From: an uncultured virus (IMG/VR IMGVR_UViG_3300039171_000040)
Lineage: Duplodnaviria; Heunggongvirae; Uroviricota; Caudoviricetes
Strand: one strand, 5' to 3'
Length of the DNA: 64,000 bases
IMG/VR virus record: IMGVR_UViG_3300039171_000040
Coordinates: 1 to 64,000 of that record
Shown: piece after piece, positions 19,067 through 59,349 of the stretch
How the letters are laid out: every line of letters begins with the position of its first letter
Numbering within the stretch: position 1 is the stretch's first letter
Notes under the pieces: model-generated
What the model was told of the DNA's origin: nothing
What the model saw: only the letters and a program-made list of their open reading frames with translations
Database searches by the model: none
Position numbers and translations under genes: made by a program

Positions 19067-19069
19067 GTA

Positions 19070-38674: not shown

Positions 38675-38749
38675 TTGACGCCAGACCCTCAGTATGAAAT
38701 AATACCTTTGTACTGAGGGAATACCGAATCAATTAGGAGATTAAACATG
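38675..38749 (+). promoter_or_regulatory. Early hairpin promoter cassette family A (-35 at 28087, 38675, 38972, 39218, 45275, 52528, 53171, 57986, 59659)
   Basis: TTGNNN-17bp-(A/C)ATAAT with inverted repeat CCTCAGTA/TACTGAGG around the -10 box; TAGGAGATT RBS. Confidence 0.9.
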
Positions 38750-39043
38750 GAATTTATCGAAAGCCACACCACTATCACTAATGTAGTTATTGAATTGTAC
38801 AGCACTGGTAAAGGATTCAAGACAATAACCCATCGTCCAGCAACCAAAAATTCAAAAGCTGAAACCAAAATCAAAACACATAGAACAGAAAGTGCGGCAT
38901 ACTCAAAAATCAATAAAAGTCGTAAAGTTATACGGGAATTGGAAGAGAAGTTGGCAAGAATAAAATAGTTCTTGCAATATCCACCTCAGTATGAAATAAT
39001 ACCTTTGTACTGAGGAAATGACGAAAAAACTAGGAGATTAGAT

Positions 39044-39214
39044 ATGAAAAACGCTAACCAATTTTTACGCGAATTGTTTCTCGACTACTTCAACAACTAC
39101 CTAACCGTTGCATTGTTTGCAGAACATAATGAATTGAGTGTAACAGAAGCAACCTCATTGATTGAAATGGGCAGAAAGCTGCACGAAGAATATGTTGAAC
39201 TGATGAAGAAATAG
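39044..39214 (+). CDS. Small early protein, 56 aa (below ORF-track cutoff)
   Basis: Family A promoter plus TAGGAG RBS; MKNANQFLRELFLDYFNNYLTV..KK*. Confidence 0.75.
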   Translation: MKNANQFLRELFLDYFNNYLTVALFAEHNELSVTEATSLIEMGRKLHEEYVELMKK

Positions 39215-41627: not shown

Positions 41628-41906
41628 TAAGAAATGTCAACAAGAAGCAAACAAAAAGGATGGTTTAGACTTTTAAAACAGGTCAAAGAATCTGAAATGG
41701 AATTTCTTGAATACGGTGTAGAGAAAATCCGTTGGGAATCTCACCACGACACACTGATTGATGCCATATTTTATGATCGTCAACCAAGAACAATCCAGAA
41801 GTCTTGGAAGACCCATAGAAAAACACAATACAAACCCCTTTGATGGGGTTTTTTAGTTTGTGGTGATTGATAAATAGATACATAACACAAACGATAAGGT
41901 TTCTTT

Positions 41907-42782
41907 ATGATTCCATTCTCAAAATTCATCAACGAGGTCAAGATCATTGGCCGTGGCGCTCCTAAGCAGCCGTTGAAAGACTCTGATACGATCAGGGTAT
42001 ACCATGGGGCATCTGATATTGAAACCATCGTCAAAGCCCTTACATACGGTCTGAGTGGCGACAGAAAAGCACCTAGACGCTACTCTTATGAAAATAACAA
42101 CAATCCAACAGGTCTGTTCGTAAGTCCTGATTTGGATGTGTCAAAAGAGTTTGGTGATTACATTCTAGAATTCCATACCCGCGTGTCTGACTTGATAGCT
42201 CCTATTTGGCCCGGAGGTTCATTCACGGTTCAAGGTGGAATGGCACAGAGTTTTTCTGACGAAGATGAAAGAACAGTTGAACGAGCCGCACAAAAAGCCC
42301 GAATCACAAAAGACGCATCCGAACACATTCTCAAAAGTGAAAGCCCTGACGTTGCGTACTGGTTAATGGACACAGGCGAAACACAGGCATTATTCACTGG
42401 AAATCTGAACAAGAACTCTGTAAGAGCAGTGTGGGTGAGTACAAACCCCGAAAGAATCAATCAACCGTACAAAAGAATGAAGCCAAAAGAGTTCATGAAA
42501 CAATTTAATACGACTGGTATTGATAATCGGTTTGGATCAAAGTTTGGGCCTGATAACATACAAGCAAAACAGATGAGGGATGTGAAAAATAGACTGGTTG
42601 AGCCTAGAGAAAACATTACACTGGATATTCTTGTTAGTCGGTATGTTGAAAAGTTTTCTCATATGACTCGTGACGGAATTATTGACATTCTCAGAAAAAG
42701 TCCTGACTATATTGATCGCGCTGTCTGGAACCAAAAACAAGTGAATCAGGTTCAGAAAGACTTGCAATCACTCAAAAAATAA
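41907..42782 (+). CDS. Putative capsid-packaged ADP-ribosyltransferase-fold protein
   Basis: CTS-like MIPFSKFINE; RVYHG..GL..GLFVSPD..VS.EFG pattern; GATAAATA at 41869. Confidence 0.6.
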   Translation: MIPFSKFINEVKIIGRGAPKQPLKDSDTIRVYHGASDIETIVKALTYGLSGDRKAPRRYSYENNNNPTGLFVSPDLDVSKEFGDYILEFHTRVSDLIAPIWPGGSFTVQGGMAQSFSDEDERTVERAAQKARITKDASEHILKSESPDVAYWLMDTGETQALFTGNLNKNSVRAVWVSTNPERINQPYKRMKPKEFMKQFNTTGIDNRFGSKFGPDNIQAKQMRDVKNRLVEPRENITLDILVSRYVEKFSHMTRDGIIDILRKSPDYIDRAVWNQKQVNQVQKDLQSLKK

Positions 42783-42793
42783 AGAGAATTATA

Positions 42794-44383
42794 ATGCTAC
42801 CATTCGCAAAATATTTTTACGATACACAACTAGATGAAGCTAGAAAAAATGCAGCACAGCCATCACAAAAGAGAATGGATGCTATAGAAACACTTGCTCA
42901 GTACGCTAAAGATAAAGACGTACACATTACATATACAATATTGGATAAAGTGGGTATAAATCCAAAATCAAAATTTCCTGATACACCATTAGCAGTATTC
43001 ACATACCCACTAGCTCAGGTATGGAAAGACTTAAAATCTCATGGCATAACCAACGTACCATTTGCCGCAGGGCGGGCAAACTATGTTTATGTGTTAAGAG
43101 AAAAAGGTAGAAGTGTAGATGTTTCAGATTACAAATTATCCAATTTGAAATCCGATTTGAAATCTTTAGAAAAAATGTGGGGTGAAGAATCATACAACGA
43201 AATTATAACTGGTCACGAAAGTTCGCTTTCTGATATGGGTGTTGGTGATAGACAACACCAAAAACGAATAAAAGATAAACCATTTGGTTATCTGAAAGAA
43301 CTATTATATAGGTATGGTGATTATATTAGTTCTTCAAAAGCTTCTTCTTATATGGCAACCGCACTAATAAAACTTGGTTATACGATAATTACAGATAAGA
43401 AAGGAACAGGACAGATTCACCCTTCTGAACCCATGCAAGCCTTTTTCTTGAAATCTAGCTCTTATGATGTTATTGATAAGATTGATTTGAAATATGGTGA
43501 TAAGTCTGTGGCGAGTGTTAGAGATATTAGAACAATGCTTAAAGCAGGTGATACATTATCTGATGCCGATTTGTTGGATGCTATATCACAAGAACCGCGA
43601 TTATTAAAATATGTGAAAAATCCTAGTGATGATTTGATCATACACGCCTATAATACAAACCTTGGGGAATGGTTTGCACCAAAGAACCCGTATAAGGATA
43701 TGACAGACCATGATCATGACAGACCATCTCGTGGTATGGTGAAAGGATTTTCTGCCATAATGTCATTATCAAAAATCAGTGATCGTGTGTTTTCTTACAT
43801 AGCTGCCAAAAATTTTGGTGATATAGTAAGATGGTCATTAATCAAAGAAAAAAGTCTCACACCAAAAAAACTTAATATTGTGATGGATGCTATTGATGAA
43901 AATATAATGGAAAATATTAAAATTAATTACTTAGTTGCTCTCATTAAAAAGACTCGGGGCGTAAGTGATTCTGATATGGACAAGTATATTGAAAAATTCC
44001 CGAACTTAGAATTTAAAGTTAGAAGTGACAAAGAGATAGAGAAAAAAATGCGTGATTCTATAATGAATGCTGAATACACTTTTCGATTATACGATGGGAG
44101 TTATCCATACAATGAAGTGTATTTTGATGCCTTGGCCGATAGAATTGAAAGTATAAAAAATTCATCTTTGCAAAATACCGAATTGAGTAAATTTGCTAGT
44201 AAAATTAAGGATACTAAAGGCTTTCCAAAACCACCAAAGCAGGTCAGCCAAAGAATGATAAAGATTCTTCTTGCCTATCACGAAGAAAAGAAAGATAACA
44301 AATTTTATACTGATATGAACGGCCCTAGAAGTACCCAAAGCGAATTAGAAGTTTTTGGATATAAAGGTGTTGCAATCGGATGA
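42794..44383 (+). CDS. Putative capsid-packaged internal protein, 529 aa
   Basis: CTS-like MLPFAKYF..QLDE; KVGINPKS..DTPL.VFTYPL and GQIHPSEPMQA motifs. Confidence 0.55.
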   Translation: MLPFAKYFYDTQLDEARKNAAQPSQKRMDAIETLAQYAKDKDVHITYTILDKVGINPKSKFPDTPLAVFTYPLAQVWKDLKSHGITNVPFAAGRANYVYVLREKGRSVDVSDYKLSNLKSDLKSLEKMWGEESYNEIITGHESSLSDMGVGDRQHQKRIKDKPFGYLKELLYRYGDYISSSKASSYMATALIKLGYTIITDKKGTGQIHPSEPMQAFFLKSSSYDVIDKIDLKYGDKSVASVRDIRTMLKAGDTLSDADLLDAISQEPRLLKYVKNPSDDLIIHAYNTNLGEWFAPKNPYKDMTDHDHDRPSRGMVKGFSAIMSLSKISDRVFSYIAAKNFGDIVRWSLIKEKSLTPKKLNIVMDAIDENIMENIKINYLVALIKKTRGVSDSDMDKYIEKFPNLEFKVRSDKEIEKKMRDSIMNAEYTFRLYDGSYPYNEVYFDALADRIESIKNSSLQNTELSKFASKIKDTKGFPKPPKQVSQRMIKILLAYHEEKKDNKFYTDMNGPRSTQSELEVFGYKGVAIG

Positions 44384-44423
44384 ATAATCTGTATAATTAG
44401 AATAAATCAAAAAGAGAATTATC

Positions 44424-44717
44424 ATGAAGCCATTTACACAATACATTCAAGAAAAAGTTGCACTGTATCACAGCTTTTACCGTGATGCCGTTCAAGCCGC
44501 TCTAGACGATGCAACAGCCAAAGGCTGGACATGGGATGATCAGAATGAAATGATCATGGCTACAAGCAACCACAAACCCTCTGTTGGCAAAACTACAAGC
44601 TGGACAATGCCTGTGTACAAAGAAAAGAATGGTAGAACAACAGAGGCATTGTTATCAGTTCAAATCTATGGAATGGATAACAACAAGTATGAACTCAACC
44701 ATTACATTAGTCGATAG
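44424..44717 (+). CDS. Putative internal head protein
   Basis: CTS-like MKPFTQYIQE. Confidence 0.65.
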   Translation: MKPFTQYIQEKVALYHSFYRDAVQAALDDATAKGWTWDDQNEMIMATSNHKPSVGKTTSWTMPVYKEKNGRTTEALLSVQIYGMDNNKYELNHYISR

Positions 44718-44732
44718 AAAATAATTTCACAC

Positions 44733-44766
44733 AGGGCTTGCAAAAGCCCTTTTTTATTGCTAAGAT
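44733..44766 (+). promoter_or_regulatory. Fused terminator-promoter cassette family C (also 52266-52300, 58881-58918)
   Basis: GGG(GG)C-TTGCAA..-CCC-T-tract hairpin containing the -35; exactly 17 bp to TAAGAT/TACTCT/TAGACT. Confidence 0.8.
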
Positions 44767-44808
44767 GGTTGTGTTGAATGAGGAAACAACCAATTAGGAG
44801 ATTAGATC

Positions 44809-45267
44809 ATGGATAACACCAAGATGCTTGCAGAAACACTTGCTTCCGACATCGAAGTTGTTTTGAGAAAGAACTTCCCCAACGGGTACATTCGTGCCTT
44901 CTATTCAAACAACCTTGCTCCTGTCGTGTTCGTTAGCTTCGGTTTGATCGAAGACATCAATGATGTGGCTAACAAGATTCGTCACAACGATCCACTGATT
45001 CACTCTTTTTGTGTTCACATCAACGGCGAAGACAGCTACGAAGCAAGCTCTTCCATGAGTGGTCTTAGCGTTAACCCAGAGGCTGGTTCTTATATGGCAA
45101 TGGGTAACATCAAAACCCCATTCCGCAAGACCACAGGTGACTCTAAGAAGATCGTAAAAGCATTCACACGGTTTGCTTCTCGTGTTGCCAAGATCGTTGA
45201 AGATAACAAAGCTGACATCTACGGTGTTGAAAGGATTGACCCAAAATACTTAGAAGTTATTTTGTAA
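44809..45267 (+). CDS. Early hypothetical protein
   Basis: Family C promoter and TAGGAG RBS; codon usage typical of high expression. Confidence 0.7.
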   Translation: MDNTKMLAETLASDIEVVLRKNFPNGYIRAFYSNNLAPVVFVSFGLIEDINDVANKIRHNDPLIHSFCVHINGEDSYEASSSMSGLSVNPEAGSYMAMGNIKTPFRKTTGDSKKIVKAFTRFASRVAKIVEDNKADIYGVERIDPKYLEVIL

Positions 45268-45660
45268 ATAGTTCTTGCACAAAATCCCTTGGTATGAAAT
45301 AATACGTTCGTACTAAGGGATTGACCACTTACTAGGAGATTTTCATGAACAAGACCACGATGTTTTTAGAAACCATTTCAAAGACTGCTAAAAATCTGAT
45401 TCTTGACAACATTGCTAATCATTACGGTATTAGCCGCGATGAAGCATTTGAAGAAGTTGTTGATGATGAAGCAGAACATTTGTTAGAGTATGTAACTGGT
45501 GTCGAGCGTAACGCGACTTTGATTCTGATGAAAAAATATGGGTACGCATAACATGATCAATTTCTCTAAAGTAGTAGACACACCCAGTCAGTTGTGACAT
45601 AATATCTGTGTTGAGTAAGGGGGGACTTCCCCAAAATTGAAAACCAAAAGGTAATATATT

Positions 45661-45804
45661 ATGAAAATGTTCTTTGACGCACGTTCAGCCGCACGTAACT
45701 TCAAAAAATCTTCTGTTAACGCTGTAAAAGTTGTTGACAGCAAATCAAACCCAAGCGCAAAAGGCAGCCGGTGGGCTGTAGTTTCTCCCAACCGAAAAGC
45801 CTAA
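45661..45804 (+). CDS. Small basic early protein, 47 aa (below ORF-track cutoff)
   Basis: AAAGGT RBS; MKMFFDARSAARNFKK..KGSRWAVV..KA*. Confidence 0.65.
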   Translation: MKMFFDARSAARNFKKSSVNAVKVVDSKSNPSAKGSRWAVVSPNRKA

Positions 45805-45870
45805 CATCTAAATAGTTAGTATACACTGAAAAGGCCATTCATTTGGCCTTTTTTCTTATCGGGAACACTC

Positions 45871-46461
45871 ATGACAATCAGCAAAGATTTAGCTTCAAGG
45901 TTAGCTAAGTACAATAAACCAACAGAGAAAAACTACATCAACAAAACAGGGTTCTGGATTTCTCCAAAAGGAAAGATAACAGACACCAACAACAAGAATC
46001 ATATTGATCAGATTATATCCTCACCCACCAGTTTTAATATTAGTTCTAGTTACATCAAATCCGAACACGAAAAATACGGTGAGCGAATTGGTAAAGAAGG
46101 GGATGCTCGTGATAATATCATGACAAAGGTGTTGCAAGATGGCTGGATTCGTGTTAGGGCGCGTAGAAACTTTATCTCTGTTCAAGTCTGGGAATTCTCA
46201 CGCAAGACGATTAAGAATTTGGAAGACTTTGCTACACAGGGGCTAGAGTCTGGCTTTTCCGGTGAGTTTATACAGCCTAACGAGATGTTCAAGGTGTCTT
46301 CACTCAGCAATGGTAGAGCAAGGCAGGTTGAAGTTGAAAGCCTCGCTAAAGGGGGTCTGGTTGAGTCGTGTGAGTTCGATACATATTCAGGGTTCTTGAT
46401 TGAAGAGTCCATGCCTACATTAAAAGAATTCATAAATAACAAGAAAAACGAACTAAAATAA
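45871..46461 (+). CDS. Late hypothetical protein with C-terminal CTS-like segment
   Basis: CTAAATA at 45808; GFWISP.G..H..GWIRVR; ends LIEESMPTLKEFINNKK. Confidence 0.6.
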   Translation: MTISKDLASRLAKYNKPTEKNYINKTGFWISPKGKITDTNNKNHIDQIISSPTSFNISSSYIKSEHEKYGERIGKEGDARDNIMTKVLQDGWIRVRARRNFISVQVWEFSRKTIKNLEDFATQGLESGFSGEFIQPNEMFKVSSLSNGRARQVEVESLAKGGLVESCEFDTYSGFLIEESMPTLKEFINNKKNELK

Positions 46462-46476
46462 AATGGGTATAAAAAC

Positions 46477-47316
46477 ATGAAAAAGTTTACTGAATTTACA
46501 AATGAATTGATCAGTGAAAAGCTGATCACATTTGGCGGAAGGGCTTATCCAAAGTTTGGACAAGTGGTTATTTTGGCAGGCGGAGCAGGTAGCGGGAAAG
46601 GCTTCGTACTTGAAAAGCTTCTGGGTATTGAGGGAGCTGTATTGGATGTTGACGCACTCAAGAAATTGGTAATGGGTTCTAAGGAAATGTCTAAGCGCAT
46701 TAAAGATGAAACTGGACAGGACATTAAAAATTTCGATTTGAAAAAATCAGAGAACGTGTCTAAGTTGCATGAGCTTCTGTCTGATGTGTATGGCATTACC
46801 AAGGCAAACGAACGTAGAATTTTTACGGGTGCGCTTGCTGCCCCTGCTGATCGCAAACCCAACATTATCTTTGACGTAACTCTAAAAGATATGAGAAAGC
46901 TGGAAAAACTTACAAGGAATGCTCTTGAGCTTGGTTATCAAAAAGAAAACATTCATCTTGTATGGGTGATCAATGACGTTGCTATTGCCATGGAACAGAA
47001 TACTGGCCGTGACAGAGTTGTACCAGAAGAGATTCTTCTATCTACTCATGAAGGCGCAAGCCTTACAATGCGTAAACTGGTTGATACAGATTCAAAAATT
47101 TCTAAGTATCTGGATGGTGATATCTGGTTTTCGTTTAATAAAGTGGGTGTTGATACAGAGTTGTCAAAATCTAAACAAGGTGGTTCTTATATTTCTGATG
47201 CTAACTACATTCAGATTAAAAAGAAAGGCCAAAAACCAATGAATTTGTTGGATATTGGTGATAGACTACTTTTGAAAATACAATTCTACACACCACAAAC
47301 AAAAGCATGGAACTAA
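46477..47316 (+). CDS. Zeta-toxin-like P-loop kinase, putatively capsid-packaged
   Basis: CTS-like MKKFTEFTNELISE; AGGAGSGKG, LDVD, IIFDVT and N..RDRVVPE..L..TH motifs. Confidence 0.75.
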   Translation: MKKFTEFTNELISEKLITFGGRAYPKFGQVVILAGGAGSGKGFVLEKLLGIEGAVLDVDALKKLVMGSKEMSKRIKDETGQDIKNFDLKKSENVSKLHELLSDVYGITKANERRIFTGALAAPADRKPNIIFDVTLKDMRKLEKLTRNALELGYQKENIHLVWVINDVAIAMEQNTGRDRVVPEEILLSTHEGASLTMRKLVDTDSKISKYLDGDIWFSFNKVGVDTELSKSKQGGSYISDANYIQIKKKGQKPMNLLDIGDRLLLKIQFYTPQTKAWN

Positions 47317-47397
47317 AAAATATCCTTTGACAGATGGGCACCCGAAGGTGCTATACTGTTGTTCTGATGAGAGATTAACCAACCAAGAGGAATTATT

Positions 47398-47877
47398 TTG
47401 AAAATCTACTTCGACATGGATGGGGTTATTGCTGATTGGGTCGCAGGATTCAATGCAACCTTTCCCATTTCCTACGATGTCTTTAACGCATTGCCTCGTG
47501 ATCGGTATGATGCATATAAAAACCTGATCCAAAACACCCCAAACTTTTTTTATGACTTGCCCGCTTTCTCTAAAACTGTTTCTATTTTGAAGAAATTGAT
47601 TGCTGATGGCTATGACGTTGAAATCATGACCAGCGCAGGAACCAACAATACCGCTAAAATCGTCAAGCAAAAGAAAAATTGGTTGAAGAAAAACGGAATC
47701 AATGCCCCGTTCAATTTCACCACCACCAGCAAAGACAAAGCAAAATTTGCGAGTCCAGACACTGTGTTGATTGATGATCGAGAAAAAAGCACCAAACCCT
47801 TCAAAGCCGCAGGTGGTAACATCATTCTTCACACTGATGGTAATAACCTGATGAAAGAACTTAAAAAATACCTGTAA
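47398..47877 (+). CDS. HAD 5'(3')-deoxyribonucleotidase (NT5C-like)
   Basis: IYFDMDGVIADW, IMTS, K..WL and LIDD motifs. Confidence 0.88.
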   Translation: MKIYFDMDGVIADWVAGFNATFPISYDVFNALPRDRYDAYKNLIQNTPNFFYDLPAFSKTVSILKKLIADGYDVEIMTSAGTNNTAKIVKQKKNWLKKNGINAPFNFTTTSKDKAKFASPDTVLIDDREKSTKPFKAAGGNIILHTDGNNLMKELKKYL

Positions 47878-47958
47878 ATTGATTTACTATCATTGTCTAT
47901 TATGAGATAATGAGTACGTAAGAGAAATAAACTACTTAGATTGATGAGATGCTATATT

Positions 47959-48468
47959 ATGAAAAAATTACTCGCTATTACTTTACTCGTTTCTGCATTT
48001 TCCGCACCAACCCTAGCCGAAAATATATTCACACCAGATAACTTAGATGATTGGACCTATTCAATCTCATACAACTTTTACACCTCACACTACCTTAGTG
48101 ATGGTTATATTGATGAGGATGATGGTAAATTTGTTGAGTGGAATGAAACCAACAATCTTTTTGGTTTTCGTGTTAATGTAAATGAAAATATTGGCTACTT
48201 CATTGCCACTGGTAAAAACAGTTTCTATGAAACATCGGTTATGAGTGGGATTGAATTTTCAACCGCTCATGAAATTATTGAATATGGATTTGATGCTGGA
48301 CTTGCCACTGGATACGAGAAATTTGTGTCTTTTGAAGTTCTTCCTTTTGTAAATCCTTTTGTAAAACTTAACCTAAAACTAACAGATAAATTGACTGCCT
48401 CTGTGAGAGTTGGTAATATGAACTTTATGGCTACAAACGCCTTCTTTGAACTTAAAATGGGATTCTAA
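47959..48468 (+). CDS. Outer-membrane beta-barrel, PagP-like
   Basis: Signal peptide MKKLLAITLL..TLA; SH, WNE.N..FG and KNSF motifs; C-terminal Phe. Confidence 0.55.
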   Translation: MKKLLAITLLVSAFSAPTLAENIFTPDNLDDWTYSISYNFYTSHYLSDGYIDEDDGKFVEWNETNNLFGFRVNVNENIGYFIATGKNSFYETSVMSGIEFSTAHEIIEYGFDAGLATGYEKFVSFEVLPFVNPFVKLNLKLTDKLTASVRVGNMNFMATNAFFELKMGF

Positions 48469-48478
48469 AGGATCAGAA

Positions 48479-50935
48479 ATGAAACCACTACACTCTAGTA
48501 ATAAGCTTGTTTCCAGTGTCAACAACACCACATCATTTAAAATGGAAACATCTGCTGAAACATTTGAAATTTTCAGTAGTCAGATTTACGAACACAAGGC
48601 CCGCGCCATCATTCGTGAACTTTCATGTAACGCACATGATGCCCATGTGGATGCAGGTAAGCGTGAAGTGCCATTCTACATCCACTTTCCAACAATATTT
48701 GAGCCATGGTTTTCTGTTGAAGATTTTGGCGTAGGTCTTGACGACTATGATATTCGGGGTGAAGAAAAGGTTCTGTATGATTCTGATGGTAATGAAGCAT
48801 CACGGTATATGGAAGGTGGTATCTACACTACCTACTTTGCATCATCAAAGCGTGAAAGTAATGAGTCTATCGGTCATTTGGGGCTAGGTTCAAAATCACC
48901 TATGGCATACACCAAGTCTATGACTGTTGTAGCTAGGAAAGACGGTGTAGAGCGTCATTACGTATGTTTTATTGGTGAGGACGGACAACCCCAAACAACA
49001 TTTAACAGCGAACATGAAACTGATCAGGGCAATGGTGTAAAGGTTAGTTTCTCTGTGTCAAGTGACGATTTTGAAGAATTCCGCAGAGAAGCACAATTTG
49101 TTCTTTCATTGCTTCGTGTAAAGCCAGAAAGCAACATCACTATTGAGCCATTTCTTTCAGAAGAAGAGTGTTCTGAATTGCGTGATGAAGGTACGCTGAT
49201 CATTAAAAACACACATCCGTTTGTTCAACACGAAACAGCGGCTGTGTACGCTAACATGGGTGGTGTCGTTTATCCTGTTCGCAATATTGATTTCTACTTT
49301 CTAGGGAAAACTGTTCTTGTTAATGAAGATGCCTATAACACTGGTGAAGAAGATACACCCATCTATCACGACTTTGACAAGGCTACTGTTTCTTTTATTA
49401 AAAACGTGACAGATCGTAGCAATCGCTGCATCATTGTTAACTTTGACATTGGGCAACTTTCTTTCATGCCTTCACGCGAGGGTCTTTCTCAGGACACCAC
49501 AACAAAGCTGAATCTGTATAAGAGATTGGTTGGGTCTTTTGAACAAAAAGTTTTTGAACTTAAATCAAAGATAGAAGAATGTGGATCACCGCTGGAAGCT
49601 ATCAATAAGTTTGGTGAATTTTCATCACCTACTGATATGTTTGCCATGGACTATAATTATAAAGGTCAATCTATTTCACAGATTTCGCACAAACGAGCTT
49701 TTACAGGAATCCGTGATTGGTTAAGTAGTGAAGATTCAGAAAAGTTTGTAATGCACTACAAAGATTATGTTGGGAGCAACTCATGGACTCGATCAGAAAA
49801 AAATACGTGTGTGCGTAGGCAGAACATCTTTACAATGAATAACTATCATCTGTATTATTTGATGAAAGAAAAAAATCAAGATTCATTCGATTGTTTTTAC
49901 TGTAATGAAAAAGATGATTATAAAGGACTTTCAAAAGCGATTCGATTATACATCAATCAATCTGATATTAATGGTGAACGGGTTATGTTCTTTTACACTC
50001 CTGTAGAATCAGAAGTGTTTAAAAAAGTTAGTGACGTTCTTTACGGCAATGTTCGGTATCGTCATATCTCTGAGCTTGTTGAAGAAGTCAAGGTTATTGA
50101 ACCAACATTCTTTGATAAGAAAACTCGGGCTGTATCTGGTGGTCGAAAAGTTTCAAAGAAAAATGAAACAAAAGCAAAACTGATCAGATGGGATAGTAAA
50201 GAAAAATCTTATATTTTTACTGACAAACAGGTTCTGGTTAACCTAGACAAGTTAAACCATAGCAATTGTGTGTGGGTTAATTATTGTGATATGGGATTAA
50301 GCGCAAACTATTCCATTGAAGTAGGTGGGTCGGTACAAACGATATCACGATCAAAGCTTATAAAAATATTGGAAGATTTTAATATCAAGGTTGTTTTGAT
50401 TGCCAATAAAAAGAATGGTGCTAAAATTGCCCGTTCTGGACTCTCTAACATCAATGAGGTGATTAAACCAGTCTTTGACGCACACTATGACACCATCTTG
50501 AAAAGTCGTGTGTATGCGCGTCTGGATTCGGTGTACAGGGTTGATGATGAATCTGAGATTTTTGACAGATTTGTTAGGATGCAATTTAACTCAGAAAGAA
50601 ACTTGTTCAAATACCTTTACAAAAGCGACACAGAATATTCTCAACCAATGATTCAGTTTGTGGTTGACAAGGTGATTAAATTCAGAGAGGAAAATGCCTG
50701 TCAAGAAAATTTCTTTGATAGCCTGAGAGAATTTGTTGATGCGGAAGAGGTAGATAAGCTGGTGATCGCTAATAGATCGTTTGATTCTGATATTCATGAT
50801 GAAATTGAACAGATTATGAAATCCATAAGAACTAGATATCCGCTTCTTTTTGGTGTTGACGAAGACGAATCTCTTGTGTTAGAGTACGTCGAGATGATCA
50901 ATGAAAGAAACCACAAACAAATGAAATTAGCATAA
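48479..50935 (+). CDS. rIIA: rIIA protein
   Basis: GHKL-type IY..K.RA.IRELSCNA.DAH, DFGVGL, SSKRESN..IG..GLGSKSP.AY and PSREGL motifs. Confidence 0.93.
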   Translation: MKPLHSSNKLVSSVNNTTSFKMETSAETFEIFSSQIYEHKARAIIRELSCNAHDAHVDAGKREVPFYIHFPTIFEPWFSVEDFGVGLDDYDIRGEEKVLYDSDGNEASRYMEGGIYTTYFASSKRESNESIGHLGLGSKSPMAYTKSMTVVARKDGVERHYVCFIGEDGQPQTTFNSEHETDQGNGVKVSFSVSSDDFEEFRREAQFVLSLLRVKPESNITIEPFLSEEECSELRDEGTLIIKNTHPFVQHETAAVYANMGGVVYPVRNIDFYFLGKTVLVNEDAYNTGEEDTPIYHDFDKATVSFIKNVTDRSNRCIIVNFDIGQLSFMPSREGLSQDTTTKLNLYKRLVGSFEQKVFELKSKIEECGSPLEAINKFGEFSSPTDMFAMDYNYKGQSISQISHKRAFTGIRDWLSSEDSEKFVMHYKDYVGSNSWTRSEKNTCVRRQNIFTMNNYHLYYLMKEKNQDSFDCFYCNEKDDYKGLSKAIRLYINQSDINGERVMFFYTPVESEVFKKVSDVLYGNVRYRHISELVEEVKVIEPTFFDKKTRAVSGGRKVSKKNETKAKLIRWDSKEKSYIFTDKQVLVNLDKLNHSNCVWVNYCDMGLSANYSIEVGGSVQTISRSKLIKILEDFNIKVVLIANKKNGAKIARSGLSNINEVIKPVFDAHYDTILKSRVYARLDSVYRVDDESEIFDRFVRMQFNSERNLFKYLYKSDTEYSQPMIQFVVDKVIKFREENACQENFFDSLREFVDAEEVDKLVIANRSFDSDIHDEIEQIMKSIRTRYPLLFGVDEDESLVLEYVEMINERNHKQMKLA

Positions 50936-50949
50936 AGGAAAGTATTAGT

Positions 50950-52257: not shown

Positions 52258-53553
52258 TTTAATCAGGGGGCTTGCAAAGGCTCCCTTTTTCGTTTACTCT
52301 GGTAATACAACACATACAACAGGAGAAAAATAATGTTGACTTATTCGACACCAGATGGGGTCTATCGAGAACTTACAGTGTTTCACTTTAGGCCAATGAT
52401 TTCTTTTATTGACAATCCAGAAGGGTCTGGAAAGATAACACAAAAGAGATGGCTTCGATTTTCAATTATTAAACAGAAAAGAGTCTATGGTACATGGGTA
52501 ACAATGGAATTTCTGGACAAATAGTTCTTGCATCTGATCACTCACTATGAAATAATATCCTTGTAGTGAGGGACTAACCAATTAGGAGATTTAAAATGAA
52601 ACGCAAAAACTTTGAAATTATTAAGAACGGTGTTTACCTTGAAACCAAACACGCATGGAACTCATCTATTCGTGCCATTGGAAAGAACATTGGTGTTGTC
52701 GCCAATGAGGAAAACACAACATACAATCTGACAGACTCAAATTCAACAAAAGTTGGTTTCTATTTTGAGACAGGGTATCGTGTTTGGACTGGTGACAACG
52801 GAAATGTTGTTAAATATGAAATCAATTTGTTAGGCTAAGAGAGTGTTCTATGAAAATTGTAAGTAATCATCAATATCGTTATTTTTTGTACGGATACGAA
52901 TTGTCAGAAAAAATTAGAAAATCAGAATTTGATTATATGGATGATGGGACATTTGCAGAAGAAAATTTCATTCTATACAAGGGCGAATATTATTGCCTGA
53001 ATGATTTTGTTAGAATTGTTTCTCCAACCGTTGATTGTGGGTTTGCTCATATTGATTATTCTGGCGAACTGAAAGGTTGGAATGGAATCTTTTCAGAGAC
53101 TCACTTTTCTGGTCTGGTGATAAGTATTGGTGATCACGGTGACACATACAAAATTGGTCGATATTGCAGCTTGTAATTCATCACTTGTTATGAAATAATG
53201 GATCTGTACTGAGGGAATGACCTCTAACCCATTTAGGAGTTTTTGATATGAGCAACGAAGTAAAGTTTTTCGAATTGTCTGAGCTACTTTACAACAATGA
53301 CCCTGCGGGGACATGTTGTGTAGAGAATGAAATGAATGATGAGTATGACGCAGAAGCCTATAAACTTTGTCTGTTAAAAGAAGATGATCTTAAAGATAAC
53401 AAAGCTGTTCTTGGTATTTTTAGTGAAATGTTTGATGACAATTATGATGCAGAAGTCATCAAGAAAATCTTCCCTACAATCAAGCGCATCATCTTGTCAT
53501 AGAAATAAATAATATAAATAGAGATACAACCCATAAAAGGTATTATCTCTAAA

Positions 53554-54027
53554 ATGAAAACAATCAAGTCCATCCTCATTGAATCCCGCCAAATGGGTCG
53601 TTTCGCCTCAGTCAGAGGAAAAGGAAAACGATCTAAGTCCGAAGAACAAGAAGTAGCAAAAGATTCAAACATCTTTTTTAAATATCCTTTCAAGGGATGG
53701 AAGTTTGAAGCTACTATTCACGCAGCCGCACAAGAATATGATCGCCGCCCTGATATGCTAGAAGACGATTGGAAAGATTTTCATTCCCGCGTTTTTGACA
53801 AGATTGAAAAAATGAAGCCTATCAGTGGTGTTTTTGTGTTCTTTTCAAAAAAGTATCAACAATCATACATCGCCGCAGTTAATTTTGAAACAAAAACTGT
53901 TAAGATCATAACCGTTTTGCCTAAAGGTAAATCTGACCCCAGACAATCTGGTTCATCAAACGCACCCACTATTCGTATGATCATCGAAGGTCAGCAATAC
54001 GATCTTGAAATGATCGAGTGTGAATAA
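53554..54027 (+). CDS. Putative internal head protein with possible BECR-RNase-like fold
   Basis: TATAAATA at 53513; CTS-like MKTIKSILIE; TIHA..QE.DR and KIITVLP. Confidence 0.5.
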   Translation: MKTIKSILIESRQMGRFASVRGKGKRSKSEEQEVAKDSNIFFKYPFKGWKFEATIHAAAQEYDRRPDMLEDDWKDFHSRVFDKIEKMKPISGVFVFFSKKYQQSYIAAVNFETKTVKIITVLPKGKSDPRQSGSSNAPTIRMIIEGQQYDLEMIECE

Positions 54028-54074
54028 ACCATTCTAAATACAATTGAGTATAACAGATATAGGGAATAAAAGAT

Positions 54075-54383
54075 ATGCGAGTATTGCCAATTTGGGCTAA
54101 GAAGCCTAAGAATAAAAAAGAAGTTATTGCAACACCTAAAGGATGGGTGGTCAAAGAAACTGGTGAAGTCTTGGCTAGTTATAAAGGGCTTGATGAAAAA
54201 CTAAAAGAATTGTTCAAAGAAATTGATCAAATTTCTTTTGTATCACCAGAGGCTGTAGAACAAGATGAAGAACCAGCACCCCAACAGAAGCAAGACGAAC
54301 AAGAAGAAAGCGAATATAAAAAGACAGTCGAAGTAGCAAAACCAAAAGGTCGAGGCCGACCAAAGAAAAATGCAACTAACTAA
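54075..54383 (+). CDS. Late hypothetical protein with C-terminal GRGRPKK
   Basis: CTAAATA at 54034; AT-hook-like tail. Confidence 0.55.
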   Translation: MRVLPIWAKKPKNKKEVIATPKGWVVKETGEVLASYKGLDEKLKELFKEIDQISFVSPEAVEQDEEPAPQQKQDEQEESEYKKTVEVAKPKGRGRPKKNATN

Positions 54384-54726
54384 TAAGACGTTTAAGTTGT
54401 TCGCTATGAAAGCTTATGATAATCCATATTGCATTAGCGAACAAGAATTTGAAGAGGACTTGAAAAAAATTCAAACGATCAAAAAGATGATTTCAAATGA
54501 GTCATCTGATGAGAGTTCGAATATTCGTTTGTTGGTGAACTACTTCATTTCATTTTACAATGTGTTTGAACATAAGTCTGCGACAAAGATTATTTTTCAT
54601 AAGTTGCAGCCTCATCACAAACCATACGCCAATGCAATATTGGCGTATCTTTCATTGCCTATTGGTGATGGTGGAGTGGTTGAGGAATTTTACGACCAAA
54701 TAGAAGAAGAATATAGGGGAGTATAA
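54370..54726 (+). CDS. Conserved T4-like hypothetical protein
   Basis: L...F.LFAMK.YDNP.C....EF.EDL..RLL.N..I.FYNVF pattern. Confidence 0.7.
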   Translation: MQLTNKTFKLFAMKAYDNPYCISEQEFEEDLKKIQTIKKMISNESSDESSNIRLLVNYFISFYNVFEHKSATKIIFHKLQPHHKPYANAILAYLSLPIGDGGVVEEFYDQIEEEYRGV

Positions 54727-54729
54727 GGC

Positions 54730-55143
54730 ATGAAAGAATTTAAAGACTACTTACAAGAAAAGAAAGCTGCCGATGATCCTTGTTGGAAAGGATACAAACA
54801 GGTTGGAATGAAAACCAAAGACGGTAAGCAGGTTCCAAACTGTGTACCAGAAGCTGATGAAGGCGTGGATGAGTCAGACGCACCTACAAACGTCACAGCA
54901 GGCGTTGCTAATCCAGACGCACAAACCCTCACCAAAGGCTCTTTTGCTGGCTATCCATGCTTAGACGTGGACTCAGAGACATATGTGAAGTGTAGTCGCG
55001 GTAAAGGTAAGCAACCATACGCACGTTGGAAGAATTACGTAGGTGATAAAGACTTAGAAGACTTTATCAAAAAGAATTTTAACAAAGAAAAGAAACTACT
55101 CATAAAGAATCGGGACACAGGTTCAATGACGTTTCTAAAATAA
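54730..55143 (+). CDS. Putative internal head protein
   Basis: CTS-like MKEFKDYLQE; DPCWKGYKQVGMK.K.GKQVPNCVP motif. Confidence 0.7.
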   Translation: MKEFKDYLQEKKAADDPCWKGYKQVGMKTKDGKQVPNCVPEADEGVDESDAPTNVTAGVANPDAQTLTKGSFAGYPCLDVDSETYVKCSRGKGKQPYARWKNYVGDKDLEDFIKKNFNKEKKLLIKNRDTGSMTFLK

Positions 55144-55155
55144 GGAACTCATCAA

Positions 55156-55572
55156 ATGTTTGCACTCATCAAAGCAATTCCACTGATGATGAAAACCGCA
55201 AAGTTTTGGATAATCGCGGCTCTTGTATCAAGTCTTGTTGGTGGTGTTACATGGTTGGCATACGACTATAGAAAAACACTACAAGAACTTGCGGTTTCAG
55301 AACAACAGGTTGATAATTTACAGAATCAATTGTTGGTTGTTAATGGCAGAATTAAAGAAGAGAGGGACAGAACACAAAGTCTCCGCAGTGACAATTCAAA
55401 AATATCCTCTCAGTACCTAGCCAAGATTCGAGAACTACAAGACTTGAAAGAAAATTATCAAATGCTCAAAGACAAACCCAACGAAGCCGCCTTAAAAATC
55501 GAATCATCATTCAACACGTTTATGAATGATGTGTCTTGCATTACAGGGGATGCAGCATTATGTCCAAAATAA
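55156..55572 (+). CDS. Inner-membrane spanin (Rz-like)
   Basis: N-terminal TM, long coiled coil, C-terminal Cys; overlaps a lipoprotein gene. Confidence 0.75.
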   Translation: MFALIKAIPLMMKTAKFWIIAALVSSLVGGVTWLAYDYRKTLQELAVSEQQVDNLQNQLLVVNGRIKEERDRTQSLRSDNSKISSQYLAKIRELQDLKENYQMLKDKPNEAALKIESSFNTFMNDVSCITGDAALCPK

Positions 55573-55919
55573 TTCTTTTACTGATGTTTTGCGTTATCCT
55601 ATCAGGATGTGCGTCAACACCACCAGACATCTCATTCAATGAAACATTTTCACACCCAGAACTACCGAATCCTGTACAACCGTATAAATTTGATTTTTAC
55701 GTGGTGACAGAGGACAATGTGGAAGAGTTTATTAATCAGCCAAAAGTATTTGTTGCGATTGAGTATCAACAAACTCTAGACTTTAGACAATTTCTTGAAG
55801 ATATGAAACGATTTATGCTTGAAGCCAATGGTGTGATCTGCTACTATAGAGAAGACTTAAAAGAGCAATTTTGCGAAAACCAACAAAGGTACTTTAATCG
55901 TGGAAAAGATCAGCAATAA
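55560..55919 (+). CDS. Outer-membrane lipoprotein spanin (Rz1-like)
   Basis: Lipobox LSGC; Pro-rich linker; YYR near the end. Confidence 0.75.
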   Translation: MSKIILLLMFCVILSGCASTPPDISFNETFSHPELPNPVQPYKFDFYVVTEDNVEEFINQPKVFVAIEYQQTLDFRQFLEDMKRFMLEANGVICYYREDLKEQFCENQQRYFNRGKDQQ

Positions 55920-55934
55920 TTTTAGAGTTTTGTC

Positions 55935-56411
55935 ATGATTACATTTGTTAACAGATTCGCATTTAAAGAAATGCTTCGCAACAAGAACGCAGATTTCAAT
56001 CCTTTAATTTCTACCAAGCTTGCGTATGTTTCTATTAGCGATACAAACCACGAGCAAGGGGAAATTGAATCTCTATTTACATTTACAGAAATTGATCCAT
56101 ATTCTTATATCACACTATCCTTTCCAGACAACGATGATGGTATCCCCTCAGACGAAGCACAGCGCCTTGTAGACTTCATTAAGAAACACCCTGATAAGGA
56201 CTTCATAGTTCACTGCTTCATGGGTATATCGAGGTCTGGGGCTGTTGCAAAGTTCATTAACGAATACTATGATATGAATGATGTGATTTTGAATACTTAC
56301 ACAGGCTATAACAAACAAGTGTATAATAGTCTGAATGCTGTGATTGGTAAGGATATTGCATCTTATTACGCAGAACTTGAAAAAGCTGATAAAGGATGCT
56401 GGTCAGAATAA
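55935..56411 (+). CDS. Cys-dependent phosphatase (PTP/DSP-like)
   Basis: VHCFMGISRSGAVA (HCx5R). Confidence 0.85.
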   Translation: MITFVNRFAFKEMLRNKNADFNPLISTKLAYVSISDTNHEQGEIESLFTFTEIDPYSYITLSFPDNDDGIPSDEAQRLVDFIKKHPDKDFIVHCFMGISRSGAVAKFINEYYDMNDVILNTYTGYNKQVYNSLNAVIGKDIASYYAELEKADKGCWSE

Positions 56412-56457
56412 TTTTTATAAATAGGTTATACTTTGAACAATAAGGAATAGTATTAAT

Positions 56458-56892
56458 ATGGCGTACATTGATAAAGGACTAACTCTACCGGAAGTATTTA
56501 AAAGAGTTGCAGAAAAAGAAACAATTGAAGAAAAGGCAAAACTGTTAAAAGCATACGAAACAAAAAGCTTGCGTTGGTTCATTGATTCATTGTATAATCG
56601 TGACTTATCTGATATTGTGATTCCAGAATACAAAGTTTCTAAAAATCCGTCTGGTATTGCTTTCATGAACATTAACAATTCTATGAACAGAATTGAAGCA
56701 GCTATCAGCAATAAAGATAAACCATGGATTGTGAATCGCAACTTAACATTGGTTCTGGAAGGTGTTACTTCTGAGGAAGCAAGTCTCATTGAAAAACTAT
56801 TAAAAGGCGAACGCAGAATTACTGGCGTGTCGAAAACGGTTTTTAAGAAGGCATATCCTGAATTTTTTCGTACTGAGGAAGAGGTTCAATAA
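56458..56892 (+). CDS. Conserved T4-like hypothetical protein
   Basis: EVF..V....T..EK..LL and LEG....EA.L motifs; TATAAATA at 56416. Confidence 0.6.
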   Translation: MAYIDKGLTLPEVFKRVAEKETIEEKAKLLKAYETKSLRWFIDSLYNRDLSDIVIPEYKVSKNPSGIAFMNINNSMNRIEAAISNKDKPWIVNRNLTLVLEGVTSEEASLIEKLLKGERRITGVSKTVFKKAYPEFFRTEEEVQ

Positions 56893-56976
56893 TTTAAAGC
56901 GGGGATGGAAAAAGATATTCGCTTAAAATAAACCCCATTCATTCGTTTGGGGTTTTCAAAAATAGAGAGGATTAAA

Positions 56977-57141
56977 ATGTCATTCCAACATGATAAAGGA
57001 AAAATTAAACACAATGCGTTGGCAGCATTGGTAACATCCAATGCCTTCTTACCAAAGAAAGAAAAGATCAAAAAAGGCAAAGGATCATACAACCGAAACA
57101 GTAAACACAAATCAGACTACTCACACAAACGCATTTTTTAA
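56977..57141 (+). CDS. arfA: Alternative ribosome rescue factor A, 54 aa
   Basis: QH.KG.IK.NAL.AL....F....EK.KKGKGSY.R..KH matches ArfA; GAGG RBS. Confidence 0.88.
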   Translation: MSFQHDKGKIKHNALAALVTSNAFLPKKEKIKKGKGSYNRNSKHKSDYSHKRIF

Positions 57142-57167
57142 AGTGTTTTTGTATGAGTAGTTTTTTT
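57116..57167 (+). terminator. Long hairpin plus U-tract spanning the arfA stop codon
   Basis: ACTACTCAcACAAA..TTTGTaTGAGTAGT followed by a T run; TAA lies at the apex. Confidence 0.7.
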
Positions 57168-57192
57168 ATTTGACTACACAAAAGAGAATTAT

Positions 57193-57714
57193 ATGGAAAA
57201 CTCAAACAAAAAACCAGTACGGATACTATTTCTTGACATAGAAGGGGTTCTAGCCACGCATCGCGCTCAGTTCTCAAAACTTGAAAGAGGGGCTTTGGAA
57301 GATTTTGATTCCGTGGTGGTCGAATTCCTAGATTCTATTTGTAGCAAGTATCTATGTTATATTGTAATAACATCCAGAAAAAGAAAATTATTTGACAGTG
57401 TTGATATTTTTAAGTCAAAAATGATAGGATGGGGTGGTGGGTATCTAACGGACTTTTTATTTCCTGATGATGATTTATGGAGAACAACAACAAAAACTCT
57501 CGATTATAAATCTTTAGAAATTGACGACTGGTTTGAAAAGTTTGAAAAGAAATTTAAAAATAAATTTTATATTGACAACTACGTTATTATAGATGACAAT
57601 CTTCTTGGCTCTATATCAAAGCATGATGATCATTTTGTCTATGTTAAAAATGGATATAATGGAATGGGATGTGATGAGTATAGGGAATTAATTAAAATAC
57701 TTGATAAGGAATGA
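57193..57714 (+). CDS. HAD-domain protein (Swiss Army Knife RNA-repair-like)
   Basis: ILFLDIEGVL, IVITS, EI..W and YVIIDD motifs. Confidence 0.75.
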   Translation: MENSNKKPVRILFLDIEGVLATHRAQFSKLERGALEDFDSVVVEFLDSICSKYLCYIVITSRKRKLFDSVDIFKSKMIGWGGGYLTDFLFPDDDLWRTTTKTLDYKSLEIDDWFEKFEKKFKNKFYIDNYVIIDDNLLGSISKHDDHFVYVKNGYNGMGCDEYRELIKILDKE

Positions 57715-59091
57715 TTTAGTTATGACAATTGAAAAAGTTTTAGTGTGTGACGCATGTAAACAACCGATTAATGATAACAAGCTAGACGCGATTTCGGTTC
57801 TTGGTAATATCCATAAAACAGACTGTAATGAAACTAATGGTTTTGGTGGTAGGTTGTTTGGTGATTGTAATTGGCTTGCGATTGCGAATTTTGAGGCTCT
57901 AGATTATTGTGAGATTCCAGTAACCCACGTTCATTTAAAATGCTTGATTGATTACTTGCAGCCAAAGCTACGACAACGATAGATGTTGACACAATCCCTC
58001 ATCATCTGTAGAATGGGTACTGTGATGAGGGAAACTTAGGAGATTAAAGCATGGCTAACATGAAAGCAGTGAATAAAGGAATCAAAGAAGCATTTCTTGG
58101 TGATATCGGAATTGAAGCTGTTCGTGGTGATGGATACGTCTATTTTCATGGGTTATATGGATTTGATAACGTAGAATCAATAATGACTCACCCTGTAAGC
58201 ACCAGCACAGAAGATATGATTAGACTGTGTGTTGATAACATTGATTGTGCTATTGAATCAGGACTTGATATTTATGGAGAAGAATTGTGAGCTATGAAGA
58301 ATTCAAATTAAAGTACGCAACCTTTCTTGTTCAAATGATGAGATATGAGCCTGATCAAGCTGGTTCAAACATCTATGCAGAAAAGCTTGGTGCGCTTTGT
58401 GATGAGTATCCAGAGTTTGAAAAGAAATTAGATGAAGATGATTGACACCAGAACGCATTTCCTTTATACTGAGTGTAGAAATTGAGAAATACCTACCGGA
58501 GATTAGACATGGACAAGATTCAATTCGCAGTTATCGAAGCCAAAGTTTCAAACGCAGTTCTGGCTTATGAAGAAGACTTTGCATTTCGTAATGCAGGTTG
58601 CTTAGATTTCGGGACTTGTGGTTATGCCATTGTTCTACTAGGATTTGGTCGCAAGCGTAAGATCAAGCAAGAATTTCTTGACGCAGGATTCATCAAAGAA
58701 AACAACACTTGGGACAGCTACGGAAAAAAGGAATATGTGTTCCAGCTACAAAAGCCAACCGTAGGAACTCAGTACATCGGTTTCTATGAAGATCGAGTTC
58801 GTGCCGCTGTTAATGTTCTTCGTGAAGAGCTTGATGGAACTGGGGTTGATGTTAATATGCATACGTGGGTAGATTAATTCAAAGGGGGCTTGCAAGAGTC
58901 CCCTTTTTCGTGTAGACTGTATGTATTGATTGGGAAAACTTAGGAGATTGAATATGAACATTACCAAAAGTCAGAAAAAGACGATTGATGATCGGGAAGC
59001 GTGGAAAGACATTTGAAACAGAAAGTGGTGAATATTAAATTAGCAATAAATACTCTACACAATATAGAAATTAAAAAAAAAAGGAATAATT

Positions 59092-59349
59092 ATGAAAAGT
59101 TACGAAGCATTCTTAGAAGAAAGCAAATCAAACATGAAAATTAAAATTTTTAATAGTGATAACAATGTTGTTGGTAATCGTTTAGTTTCTGACATACACC
59201 AAAGGGCTGATGTGATTACTGGTGATATTTCATCATTTGCTACTGTAAAAATTAATAAAAAAGTGTATACTGTTAAATTGAATAGTTCGGGAACTGTTGG
59301 TAAGGTTATTTTAAAAAGAGCTTTAGAAATAAACTACAAAATTGTCTAA
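59092..59349 (+). CDS. Putative internal head protein
   Basis: AATAAATA at 59045; CTS-like MKSYEAFLEE. Confidence 0.65.
   Translation: MKSYEAFLEESKSNMKIKIFNSDNNVVGNRLVSDIHQRADVITGDISSFATVKINKKVYTVKLNSSGTVGKVILKRALEINYKIV

Follow-up and report, generated by a model that had tools for sequence, protein, structure and literature searches.

A probable T4-type capsid-targeting leader on seven proteins of an uncultured pf16-related myovirus, two of them predicted ADP-ribosyltransferase-fold proteins

Introduction

Seven plus-strand genes of an uncultured virus (IMG/VR record IMGVR_UViG_3300039171_000040) encode proteins that open with a similar short leader, and the question they raise is whether this leader marks its bearers for loading into the phage head and delivery into the host together with the DNA. 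The window, i.e. the whole stretch of 64,000 nucleotides analysed here, comprises the opening 64 kb of a linear virus record that is 73 kb long and ~46% complete. Judged by its gene content the virus is a pf16-related T4-like myovirus, because rIIA, rIIB, spanins and DUF7207 are among its profile-annotated genes and its primase, with 2,391 matching records, is closest to that of Pseudomonas phage pf16 (52% identity). Metagenome runs containing the stretch come from lake and salt-lake samples; no RNA holder was listed for 41800-47900, which has no bearing on expression.

The relevant precedent is the capsid targeting sequence (CTS) of T4 (Mullaney and Black 1996, via PMC9026906), in which residues 4 and 7 make the contact with the scaffold core and residues 8 and 10 define the cut (PMC9026906). 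At least ten T-even internal proteins (IPs) and their GmrSD targets are in print (Silas et al. 2025, PMC12373910), and the CTS has already been suggested to be a loading device used generally by T4-like phages (PMC9026906).

Results

The leader set

An initial annotation of the window proposed that seven open reading frames (ORFs) share an M-x-x-(F/Y/I) leader, and all seven do begin at the positions and with the N-termini described. The genes, named hereafter by their first position, are:

41907..42782, plus strand: 291-aa leader protein, predicted cut after I-N-E10; residues ~27-194 have a predicted ADP-ribosyltransferase (ART) fold, followed by a helical C-terminal part
42794..44383, plus strand: 529-aa leader protein, predicted cut after L-D-E15; residues ~39-235 have a predicted ART-PolyVal/RES-like fold, and the C-terminal region is variable
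44424..44717, plus strand: 97-aa IP-sized leader protein (I-Q-E10), orphan, strict pattern
46477..47316, plus strand: 279-aa leader protein (I-S-E14), zeta-toxin-family P-loop kinase (Pfam Zeta_toxin, 36.6 bits)
53554..54027, plus strand: 157-aa leader protein (L-I-E10) with IH.A..RR and T(V/I).P motifs
54730..55143, plus strand: 137-aa leader protein with a PCW module, an internal V-D-E, a probable copy of the major capsid protein (MCP) N-arm and a conserved C-terminal module
59092..59349, plus strand: 85-aa IP-sized leader protein (L-E-E10), orphan, strict pattern

The leaders are 10-19 residues long and hydrophobic or aromatic at positions 4 and 7, both of which are aromatic in 6/7 proteins and Ile in 53554. 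A strict pattern at the gene start, M..[FY]..[FY][ILVMTF].E, matches five of 108 genes (41907, 44424, 46477, 54730 and 59092), the 108 being crude calls on the 73-kb genome after removal of six shadow ORFs and addition of three small ones. Within-gene shuffles gave an expectation of 0.03 and reached the count of five in 0/5000 trials, and none of 346 internal Met positions matched. A looser pattern matches eight genes, namely all seven leader genes and the signal-peptide-like 47959, where 0.9 were expected. Both patterns were written after the seven genes had been seen, so these within-genome p-values are optimistic and independent tests were needed; the outside tests below are unaffected.

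The Glu of the predicted cut site is kept in relatives of 41907 (54/54, the query plus 53 homologs, with L/I at position 8 in 52/54), 42794 (105/113), 46477 (35/35) and 53554 (5/5, as is L8). Leader length varies among relatives while the Glu directly precedes unrelated mature domains. The orphans 44424 and 59092 also carry an (I/L)-x-E site, and no homologs of them were found beyond identical contigs. Strict matches per 100 kb number 6.8 in this genome, 1.8 in T4, 0.6 in GAP161 and 0 in both pf16 and EniLVp02; because of these densities across five genomes, the set is denser than that of T4, yet not exceptional.

Tests of the leader in T4 and S-CREM2

Applied unchanged to T4, the strict pattern matches 3/253 called genes: ipII, ipIII and 61.1. 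The looser pattern adds a 95-aa gene at 73591-73878, which we take to be ipI, and five unrelated genes, so that 5/9 matches are unrelated; T4 Alt is matched by neither pattern among the 253 genes. The published virion proteome of S-CREM2 (PMC10665884) provided a second test, covering 218/219 coding sequences (gp128 was left out since its start is missing), of which 51 are virion-detected. Only four genes match the strict pattern, encoding an S-adenosylmethionine (SAM) hydrolase, an APH/ChoK kinase, a cytidylyltransferase and gp136, and all four products are virion-detected (p=0.003, falling to 3e-4 when 24 structural proteins are set aside). With the looser pattern, five of eight matches are virion-detected.

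Capsid targeting of the seven leader proteins is thus well supported at the level of sequence, because the cut-site Glu is conserved, T4 ipII and ipIII are recovered and the S-CREM2 strict matches are all virion-detected; on the same grounds the leader was rightly assigned to the T4 type in the initial annotation.

Several observations weigh against this assignment and against what may follow from it. An aromatic-only pattern is not enriched in S-CREM2 virions (5/15 detected, p=0.26), and 23/27 non-structural S-CREM2 virion proteins lack the strict motif. The S-CREM2 authors allow for co-purification, and the proteome records presence in virions, not cleavage or injection (PMC10665884). In pf16, the closest cultured relative, 0 of 226 genes match the strict pattern; virion proteomics was not found in the available part of the pf16 paper. 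Conservation is lower in the targeting half of the leader than at the Glu, F4 being present in only 15/54 sequences of the 41907 alignment and a strict aromatic pair in only 55 of the 150 best relatives of 42794. A gp21 protease gene was found neither in the 46%-complete fragment, outside which the head genes lie, nor in four related fragments, and its absence from the fragment itself is uninformative; pf16 encodes a gp21-type protease, and its gp23 has I-N-E ahead of the N-arm. The mature domains match no defence or anti-defence model in PADLOC.

Probable late promoter sites

Transcription signals ahead of the leader genes are as follows:

41871..41876, plus strand: TAAATA late-promoter core heading the 41907-42794-44424 cassette, 36 nt ahead of the 41907 ATG
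44370..44397, plus strand: sigma70-like TTGCAA-N16-TATAAT ahead of 44424, a regex match that may add early transcription
45809..45814, plus strand: TAAATA ahead of 45871, followed by a terminator-like hairpin; kept in 4/4 related loci
46433..46438, plus strand: TAAATA 44 nt ahead of the kinase gene
53506..53520, plus strand: two TAAATA sites (starts 53506 and 53515) ahead of 53554
54035..54040, plus strand: TAAATA heading the 54075-DUF7207-54730-spanins unit, whose gene order is the same in phage pf16
59047..59052, plus strand: TAAATA 45 nt ahead of 59092

A TAAATA site lies 25-65 nt upstream of 4/7 leader genes and of 4/63 other plus-strand genes (Fisher p=0.002). The remaining three leader genes lie downstream in units, 42794 and 44424 after 41907, and 54730 after 54075/54370. 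From its distribution TAAATA behaves as a late promoter, because 10/38 minus-strand genes, which are mostly structural, share the site. Among the parsed loci of kinase relatives, 49/60 have TAAATA 15-70 nt upstream of the kinase gene (duplicates included). The association of TAAATA sites with leader units, as first described, is therefore real, although its positions were off by 1-2 nt and the 46433 site had been missed. The site placed at 45808 is present, at 45809, but heads 45871, which is without an N-terminal leader; the hairpin between the two, at about 45829-45856, was read by eye. Early transcription of such genes would not refute an internal-protein reading, since T4 produces its IPs both early and late (PMC6071114).

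Further TATAAATA late sites at 41414-41419 and 56418-56423 head a non-coding stretch and a conserved leaderless gene, 56458, respectively. In two loci with 41907 homologs (L093 and L096), runs of 4-6 leader genes have TAAATA just 11-15 nt upstream of the start codon, a spacing that suggests leaderless late mRNAs in other lineages.

Two predicted ART-fold proteins

For 41907, 54 homologs were obtained at E<=0.001, and alignment shows H33 in 52/54 and E158 in 54/54. The AF2 model (pLDDT 91.5) matched best, among 48,161 chains, the Rhs toxin TreX (VIA Z 7.0, rmsd 3.6, 108 aligned), and all rows with Z>=5 are ART-superfamily chains, i.e. of the split beta-sheet ART fold. H33 lies on strand 28-35 and E158 just before strand 161-163, as putative counterparts of the strand-1 His/Arg and the catalytic Glu of strand 5 in ART enzymes. 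Foldseek matches to BFVD were weak and mostly unnamed. By its model, 41907 is most likely an NAD+-dependent mono-ADP-ribosyltransferase with His on strand 1 and Glu158.

Residues 1-240 of 42794 retrieved 1,439 clusters (50% identity) at E<=0.001. Its best 150 relatives include 139 with a hydrophobic-x-Glu within the first 30 residues, a count for which no null was computed, and 115 with a hydrophobic pair. The AF2 model of the domain (pLDDT 92.2) matched best a domain of a cyanophage A4 ejection protein (VIA Z 7.5, rmsd 5.0, 161 aligned), then NatT and ParT (both Z 5.2), and Foldseek returned ART-PolyVal models (E 4e-4, TMt 0.50). In the available part of the cyanophage A4 paper the term 'ADP-ribosyl' is absent and the matched domain is not named as an ART. 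Strand 1 lacks a canonical His/Arg and has Y/F instead, with His in 7/113; Y69 (108/113), H209 and E212 (112/113 each) are conserved. The model predicts an ART-PolyVal/RES-like, NAD+-using domain that may be a transferase or an NADase.

Neither protein is reached by routine searches: 41907, 42794, 44424, 45871 and 59092 have no match in Pfam, PHROG, NCBIfam or PADLOC, tblastn of 41907 and of the 42794 domain against 50,697 phage records gave no match, Pfam scans of single family members returned nothing but ART-PolyVal at E 0.037 in 2/54 and C-terminal repeats, and Protein Data Bank (PDB) sequence searches with 41907, 42794, 46477 and 53554 returned nothing significant. The two families are not shown to be close kin, as their profile comparison reached a probability of 26%. 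All fold Z-scores are below 8 and the ESM leads are 0.86-0.90, which also counts against the reading; the ART-fold call for 41907 and 42794 is therefore a prediction that rests on the agreement of several modest signals. The initial label of 41907 as ART-like is borne out by the model, its ART-dominated structural matches and the conserved H33 and E158. The 529-aa 42794 is indeed a large leader protein, but it had been listed as unknown and is, by model, a second ART-fold protein; the structural comparison proposed at the outset gave a predicted ART fold for both domains.

A zeta-type kinase

The kinase-like character given to 46477 at the outset is upheld. The protein scores 36.6 bits against PF06414 (cut-off 22.3), its Walker A motif, GxGxGSGKG, is invariant, and Walker A K41, D57, D59, D133, R178 and R180 are, like E14, present in 35/35 aligned sequences (35 of 49 distinct ones; F4 in 32/35). 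From sequence it is a zeta-type P-loop kinase and most likely acts as an ATP-dependent small-molecule or nucleotide kinase. Zeta toxins are defined by an epsilon antitoxin partner and UDP-GlcNAc kinase activity. No constant, antitoxin-like neighbour was found across 68 kinase loci, where neighbours vary, and no solved structure matched at E<=0.1. The kinase occurs in 262 phage records and 79 viral loci. Leader-like starts were seen at 44 of the kinase loci, 60/80 of which were parsed (duplicates included), and leader-bearing homologs 58-61% identical occur in cultured Klebsiella, Cronobacter, Vibrio and Aeromonas phages. A 5'-nucleotidase adjoins the kinase in 8/68 loci, too few for a general kinase-nucleotidase pair, which was rejected.

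Some kinase loci are arranged differently. In L004 (3941-5737) an intein-like insertion with a LAGLIDADG domain lies inside the Walker A (P-loop) motif. In L038, L068, L071, L064 and L059 the kinase ends polyproteins of 400-1,000 aa, behind internal L-D-E/L-x-E sites; these join a nucleotidyltransferase-like or other domain, a PCW module and the kinase via internal leader/L-x-E sites. In L057 (6155-6673) a leader-tagged HAD-type (DxDG) protein is encoded directly 3' of the kinase.

Gene 54730 and probable copies of the capsid N-arm

One leader protein probably departs from the proposed effector role. The segment of 54730 that follows V-D-E (window 54871-54920) resembles the N-arm of the pf16 MCP (score 41, p=0.002), the phage's own MCP lying outside the fragment. 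N-arm copies occur elsewhere, in T4 gp61.1 (T4 18966-19130) and in L155 (2956-3279). T4 gp61.1 scores 81 against the T4 capsid arm, the next of 656 ORFs scoring 46, and the counterpart matches its own capsid arm best in T4 (81), GAP161 (94), S-CREM2 (95), pf16 (43) and, weakly, G007 (27); for ACG-2014a the own arm scores 65 vs 76, so the cognate is not best. The positional counterpart of 54730 in S-CREM2, gp160, is virion-detected. In L003, two separate genes, both with a leader, take the place of 54730. On sequence grounds 54730 is probably a head component like gp61.1, a 54-aa hypothetical protein that likewise combines a leader with a copy of the MCP cut site and N-arm; unlike gp61.1, it adds the PCW module and a longer C-terminal domain, and its capsid match is to that of pf16. 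Its listing among the injected effectors is accordingly doubtful.

The PCW module (CWxGY...VPNCVP, window 54766-54850) is common to many cyanophage and halovirus proteins (230 records) and forms a stand-alone tagged gene in L003.

Smaller cargo and a candidate C-terminal tag

The two orphans offer few relatives: only a 100%-identical contig was found for 44424, which has no family match, and only a 100%-identical contig and a 20-residue match for 59092. Gene 53554 belongs to phrog_17629, annotated as unknown function, with homologs in 23 records, and its Aeh1 and EniLVp02 copies have leaders. It has no Pfam, NCBIfam or PDB match, and the earlier RNase label, of the RelE/BECR type and resting on a motif likeness, was not confirmed.

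45871..46461, plus strand: 196-aa protein with a leader-like C-terminus and no N-terminal leader, candidate eighth cargo

The C-terminus of 45871 has L-x-E sites followed by P-T-F/L-K-x-F/Y-I-N, a segment kept in 9/9 sequences that are 62-93% identical and so not independent. A regex for the motif matches 1/111 genes; it was written post hoc, so the count is descriptive only. Virion-detected gp12 of S-CREM2 ends similarly, but a leader is also present close to its start. Cleavage at both ends is known for T4 Alt (PMC5694885). By its sequence 45871 is a candidate eighth cargo with a C-terminal tag, put forward as a post-hoc lead.

Strain-level swapping of tagged genes

39214..39299, plus strand: empty insertion site at which near-identical strains hold further leader genes

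In L085 (99.6% DNA identity) a 116-aa leader gene is inserted near window 39250, and L086 has leader genes of 192 aa (ART-PolyVal E 2.4e-5, below the cut-off) and 79 aa just upstream of the shared stretch. In L003, whose kinase is 88% identical, the 41907-44424 cassette is absent from the corresponding place. Leader-tagged SAM lyases stand behind TAAATA in L004 (1027-2058) and L083 (2478-3524), scoring 38 and 57 bits against PF23780 (cut-off 28), with internal x-x-E sites ahead of the enzyme domain; SAM lyases counter methylation-based defences (PMC10665884). Compared across strains, these sequences indicate that the leader is a portable tag whose cargo genes are gained, lost, split and fused.

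In addition, UvsW.1 of GAP161 (L001 11708-11938) opens with a leader of the strict type. Many small early genes are preceded by a repeated early-promoter/leader cassette (TTG...TATGAAATAATA...GTACTGAGG...TTAGGAG), which also adjoins the strain-variable insertion site and has copies in the window at 38677-39260, 45267-45330, 52528-52580 and 59657-59720.

Discussion

The leader set is, by sequence, real and appears to work like the internal-protein system of T4. As in IPI, IPII and IPIII, a leader of 10-15 residues with aromatic residues at 4 and 7 and an (I/L)-x-E cut precedes unrelated mature parts encoded at strain-variable loci. Unlike the T4 IPs, the cargo includes enzyme-fold proteins of 279-529 aa, spread over 17 kb with their own late promoters in a pf16-related lineage, and neither sequence similarity to IPI-III nor a GmrSD link was shown here. 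A payload much larger than that of T4 had been expected; seven leader proteins stand, but the difference is modest, with seven in a 46%-complete genome against four pattern matches and Alt in T4.

T4 Alt is the nearest functional parallel to 41907 and 42794, being a head-packaged ART-fold enzyme whose propeptide is removed by a protease (PMC9026906, PMC5694885), a likeness that here is by model only. Unlike Alt, both match no Pfam, PHROG or NCBIfam model, Alt's included, have compact N-terminal ART-like domains and stand in tandem. The fold neighbours of 42794 are ART-PolyVal (PF18760), RES-domain NADases and AcrIF11, which are tied to virion or ejection proteins; unlike ART-PolyVal, 42794 has no HMM match, and a T4-type leader takes the place of the polyvalent/MuF setting. 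Iyer et al. (2017) reportedly treated the ART-PolyVal domains found in polyvalent proteins. The SAM hydrolase, kinase and cytidylyltransferase of S-CREM2 virions carry the same leader, and relatives of the present phage tag a SAM lyase; the enzymes differ, and a targeting leader is not mentioned in the available part of the S-CREM2 paper (PMC10665884). A search covering freely accessible main texts showed no paper that extends the CTS to these families or to the virion enzymes of cyanophages, and literature from 2022 on held no general survey of capsid-targeting leaders in T4-like phages among the matches listed. The principle is known from the T4 IPs and Alt; what is new is the pair of cargo families with a predicted ART fold.

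The following course of events is proposed. The leader genes would be transcribed late from the observed TAAATA sites. Leader residues 4 and 7 would bind the scaffold core and residues 8 and 10 set the cut, as in T4. The proteins would then be loaded into the prohead and trimmed by the head protease after (I/L)-x-E, as Glu conservation and the S-CREM2 data suggest, and would be injected with the DNA in the manner of the T4 IPs and Alt. In the first minutes of infection the ART-fold proteins and the zeta-type kinase may modify host targets, by analogy with Alt and IPI-III probably host defence or transcription/translation proteins; 54730 would be the exception, as a head component. Packaging is likely, because the pattern recovers T4 ipII and ipIII and all four S-CREM2 matches are in the virion proteome. 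Injection, by analogy with T4, is probable, and the predicted enzymatic action on host targets is given somewhat better than even odds. A role specifically against host defences is plausible but falls short of an even chance. Taken as a whole, the proposal that these proteins are loaded, trimmed and mostly delivered, with the ART-fold pair and the kinase modifying host targets, is considered reasonably probable.

The strongest competitor shares every step up to injection and differs in the purpose served: the enzymes would act in general takeover or metabolism (NAD+/nucleotide pools, modification of RNA polymerase or ribosomes) instead of on specific defence systems. Alt, the one enzyme injected by T4 whose role is known, modifies RNA polymerase (PMC9026906), translation-targeting ART toxins and NADases are among the top fold neighbours, and the kinase is widespread (262 records) and adjoins a 5'-nucleotidase in the 8/68 loci noted above. 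The ART genes, however, are patchy and swappable; this explanation is held to be unlikely, albeit a serious contender.

A role in head assembly or DNA organisation, with the proteins packaged and trimmed as core filler or scaffold helpers, would suit the capsid N-arm copies of 54730 and gp61.1, the head-assembly defects of T4 IPIII mutants (PMC9026906) and the lack of a demonstrated enzymatic domain in 44424, 59092 and 53554. It fits poorly with the putative catalytic residues that 41907, 42794 and 46477 keep across relatives 30-60% identical, with strain-level gain and loss and tagged SAM lyases, which fit conflict genes, and with the inhibition of a GmrSD variant by each of T4 IPI-III (PMC12373910); as a general account it seems improbable. 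Still less probable is that the leader flags proteins late in infection for activation by protease or for binding to the scaffold, or is vestigial, and that most of the proteins are never packaged in meaningful amounts. Targeting positions do decay in many homologs while the Glu stays, and S-CREM2 gp51, which has a leader-like start under the loose pattern, was not detected in virions, but all four strict matches were (PMC10665884), and the T4 head protease acts inside the prohead (PMC5694885). Chance similarity arising from AT-rich, Lys-rich gene starts, to which the looser patterns lend some colour by matching 47959 and five unrelated T4 genes, is largely refuted and highly improbable given the shuffles, the internal Met positions and a Glu invariant in three unrelated families.

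A bolder extension of the proposed delivery system is offered only tentatively. T4-like phages may use the leader to plug in a large number of injected enzymes that act against host defences by consuming NAD+ or by phosphorylation and that are swapped between strains. The 42794 domain (1,439 clusters), which has no library model and in most members a leader, would then be a major class of ART/NADase effectors delivered by virions that has so far escaped recognition, and the tag may also be C-terminal, as in 45871.

Since T4 already provides the mechanism, the finding is moderately surprising. If the proposal is true, the proteins that a T4-like phage delivers before any gene expression would be readable from its sequence, which would explain the kinases, SAM lyases and nucleotidyltransferases found in purified virions and would narrow the search for anti-defence enzymes to a few candidates. 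It would also open two large unnamed families with a predicted ART fold to testing.

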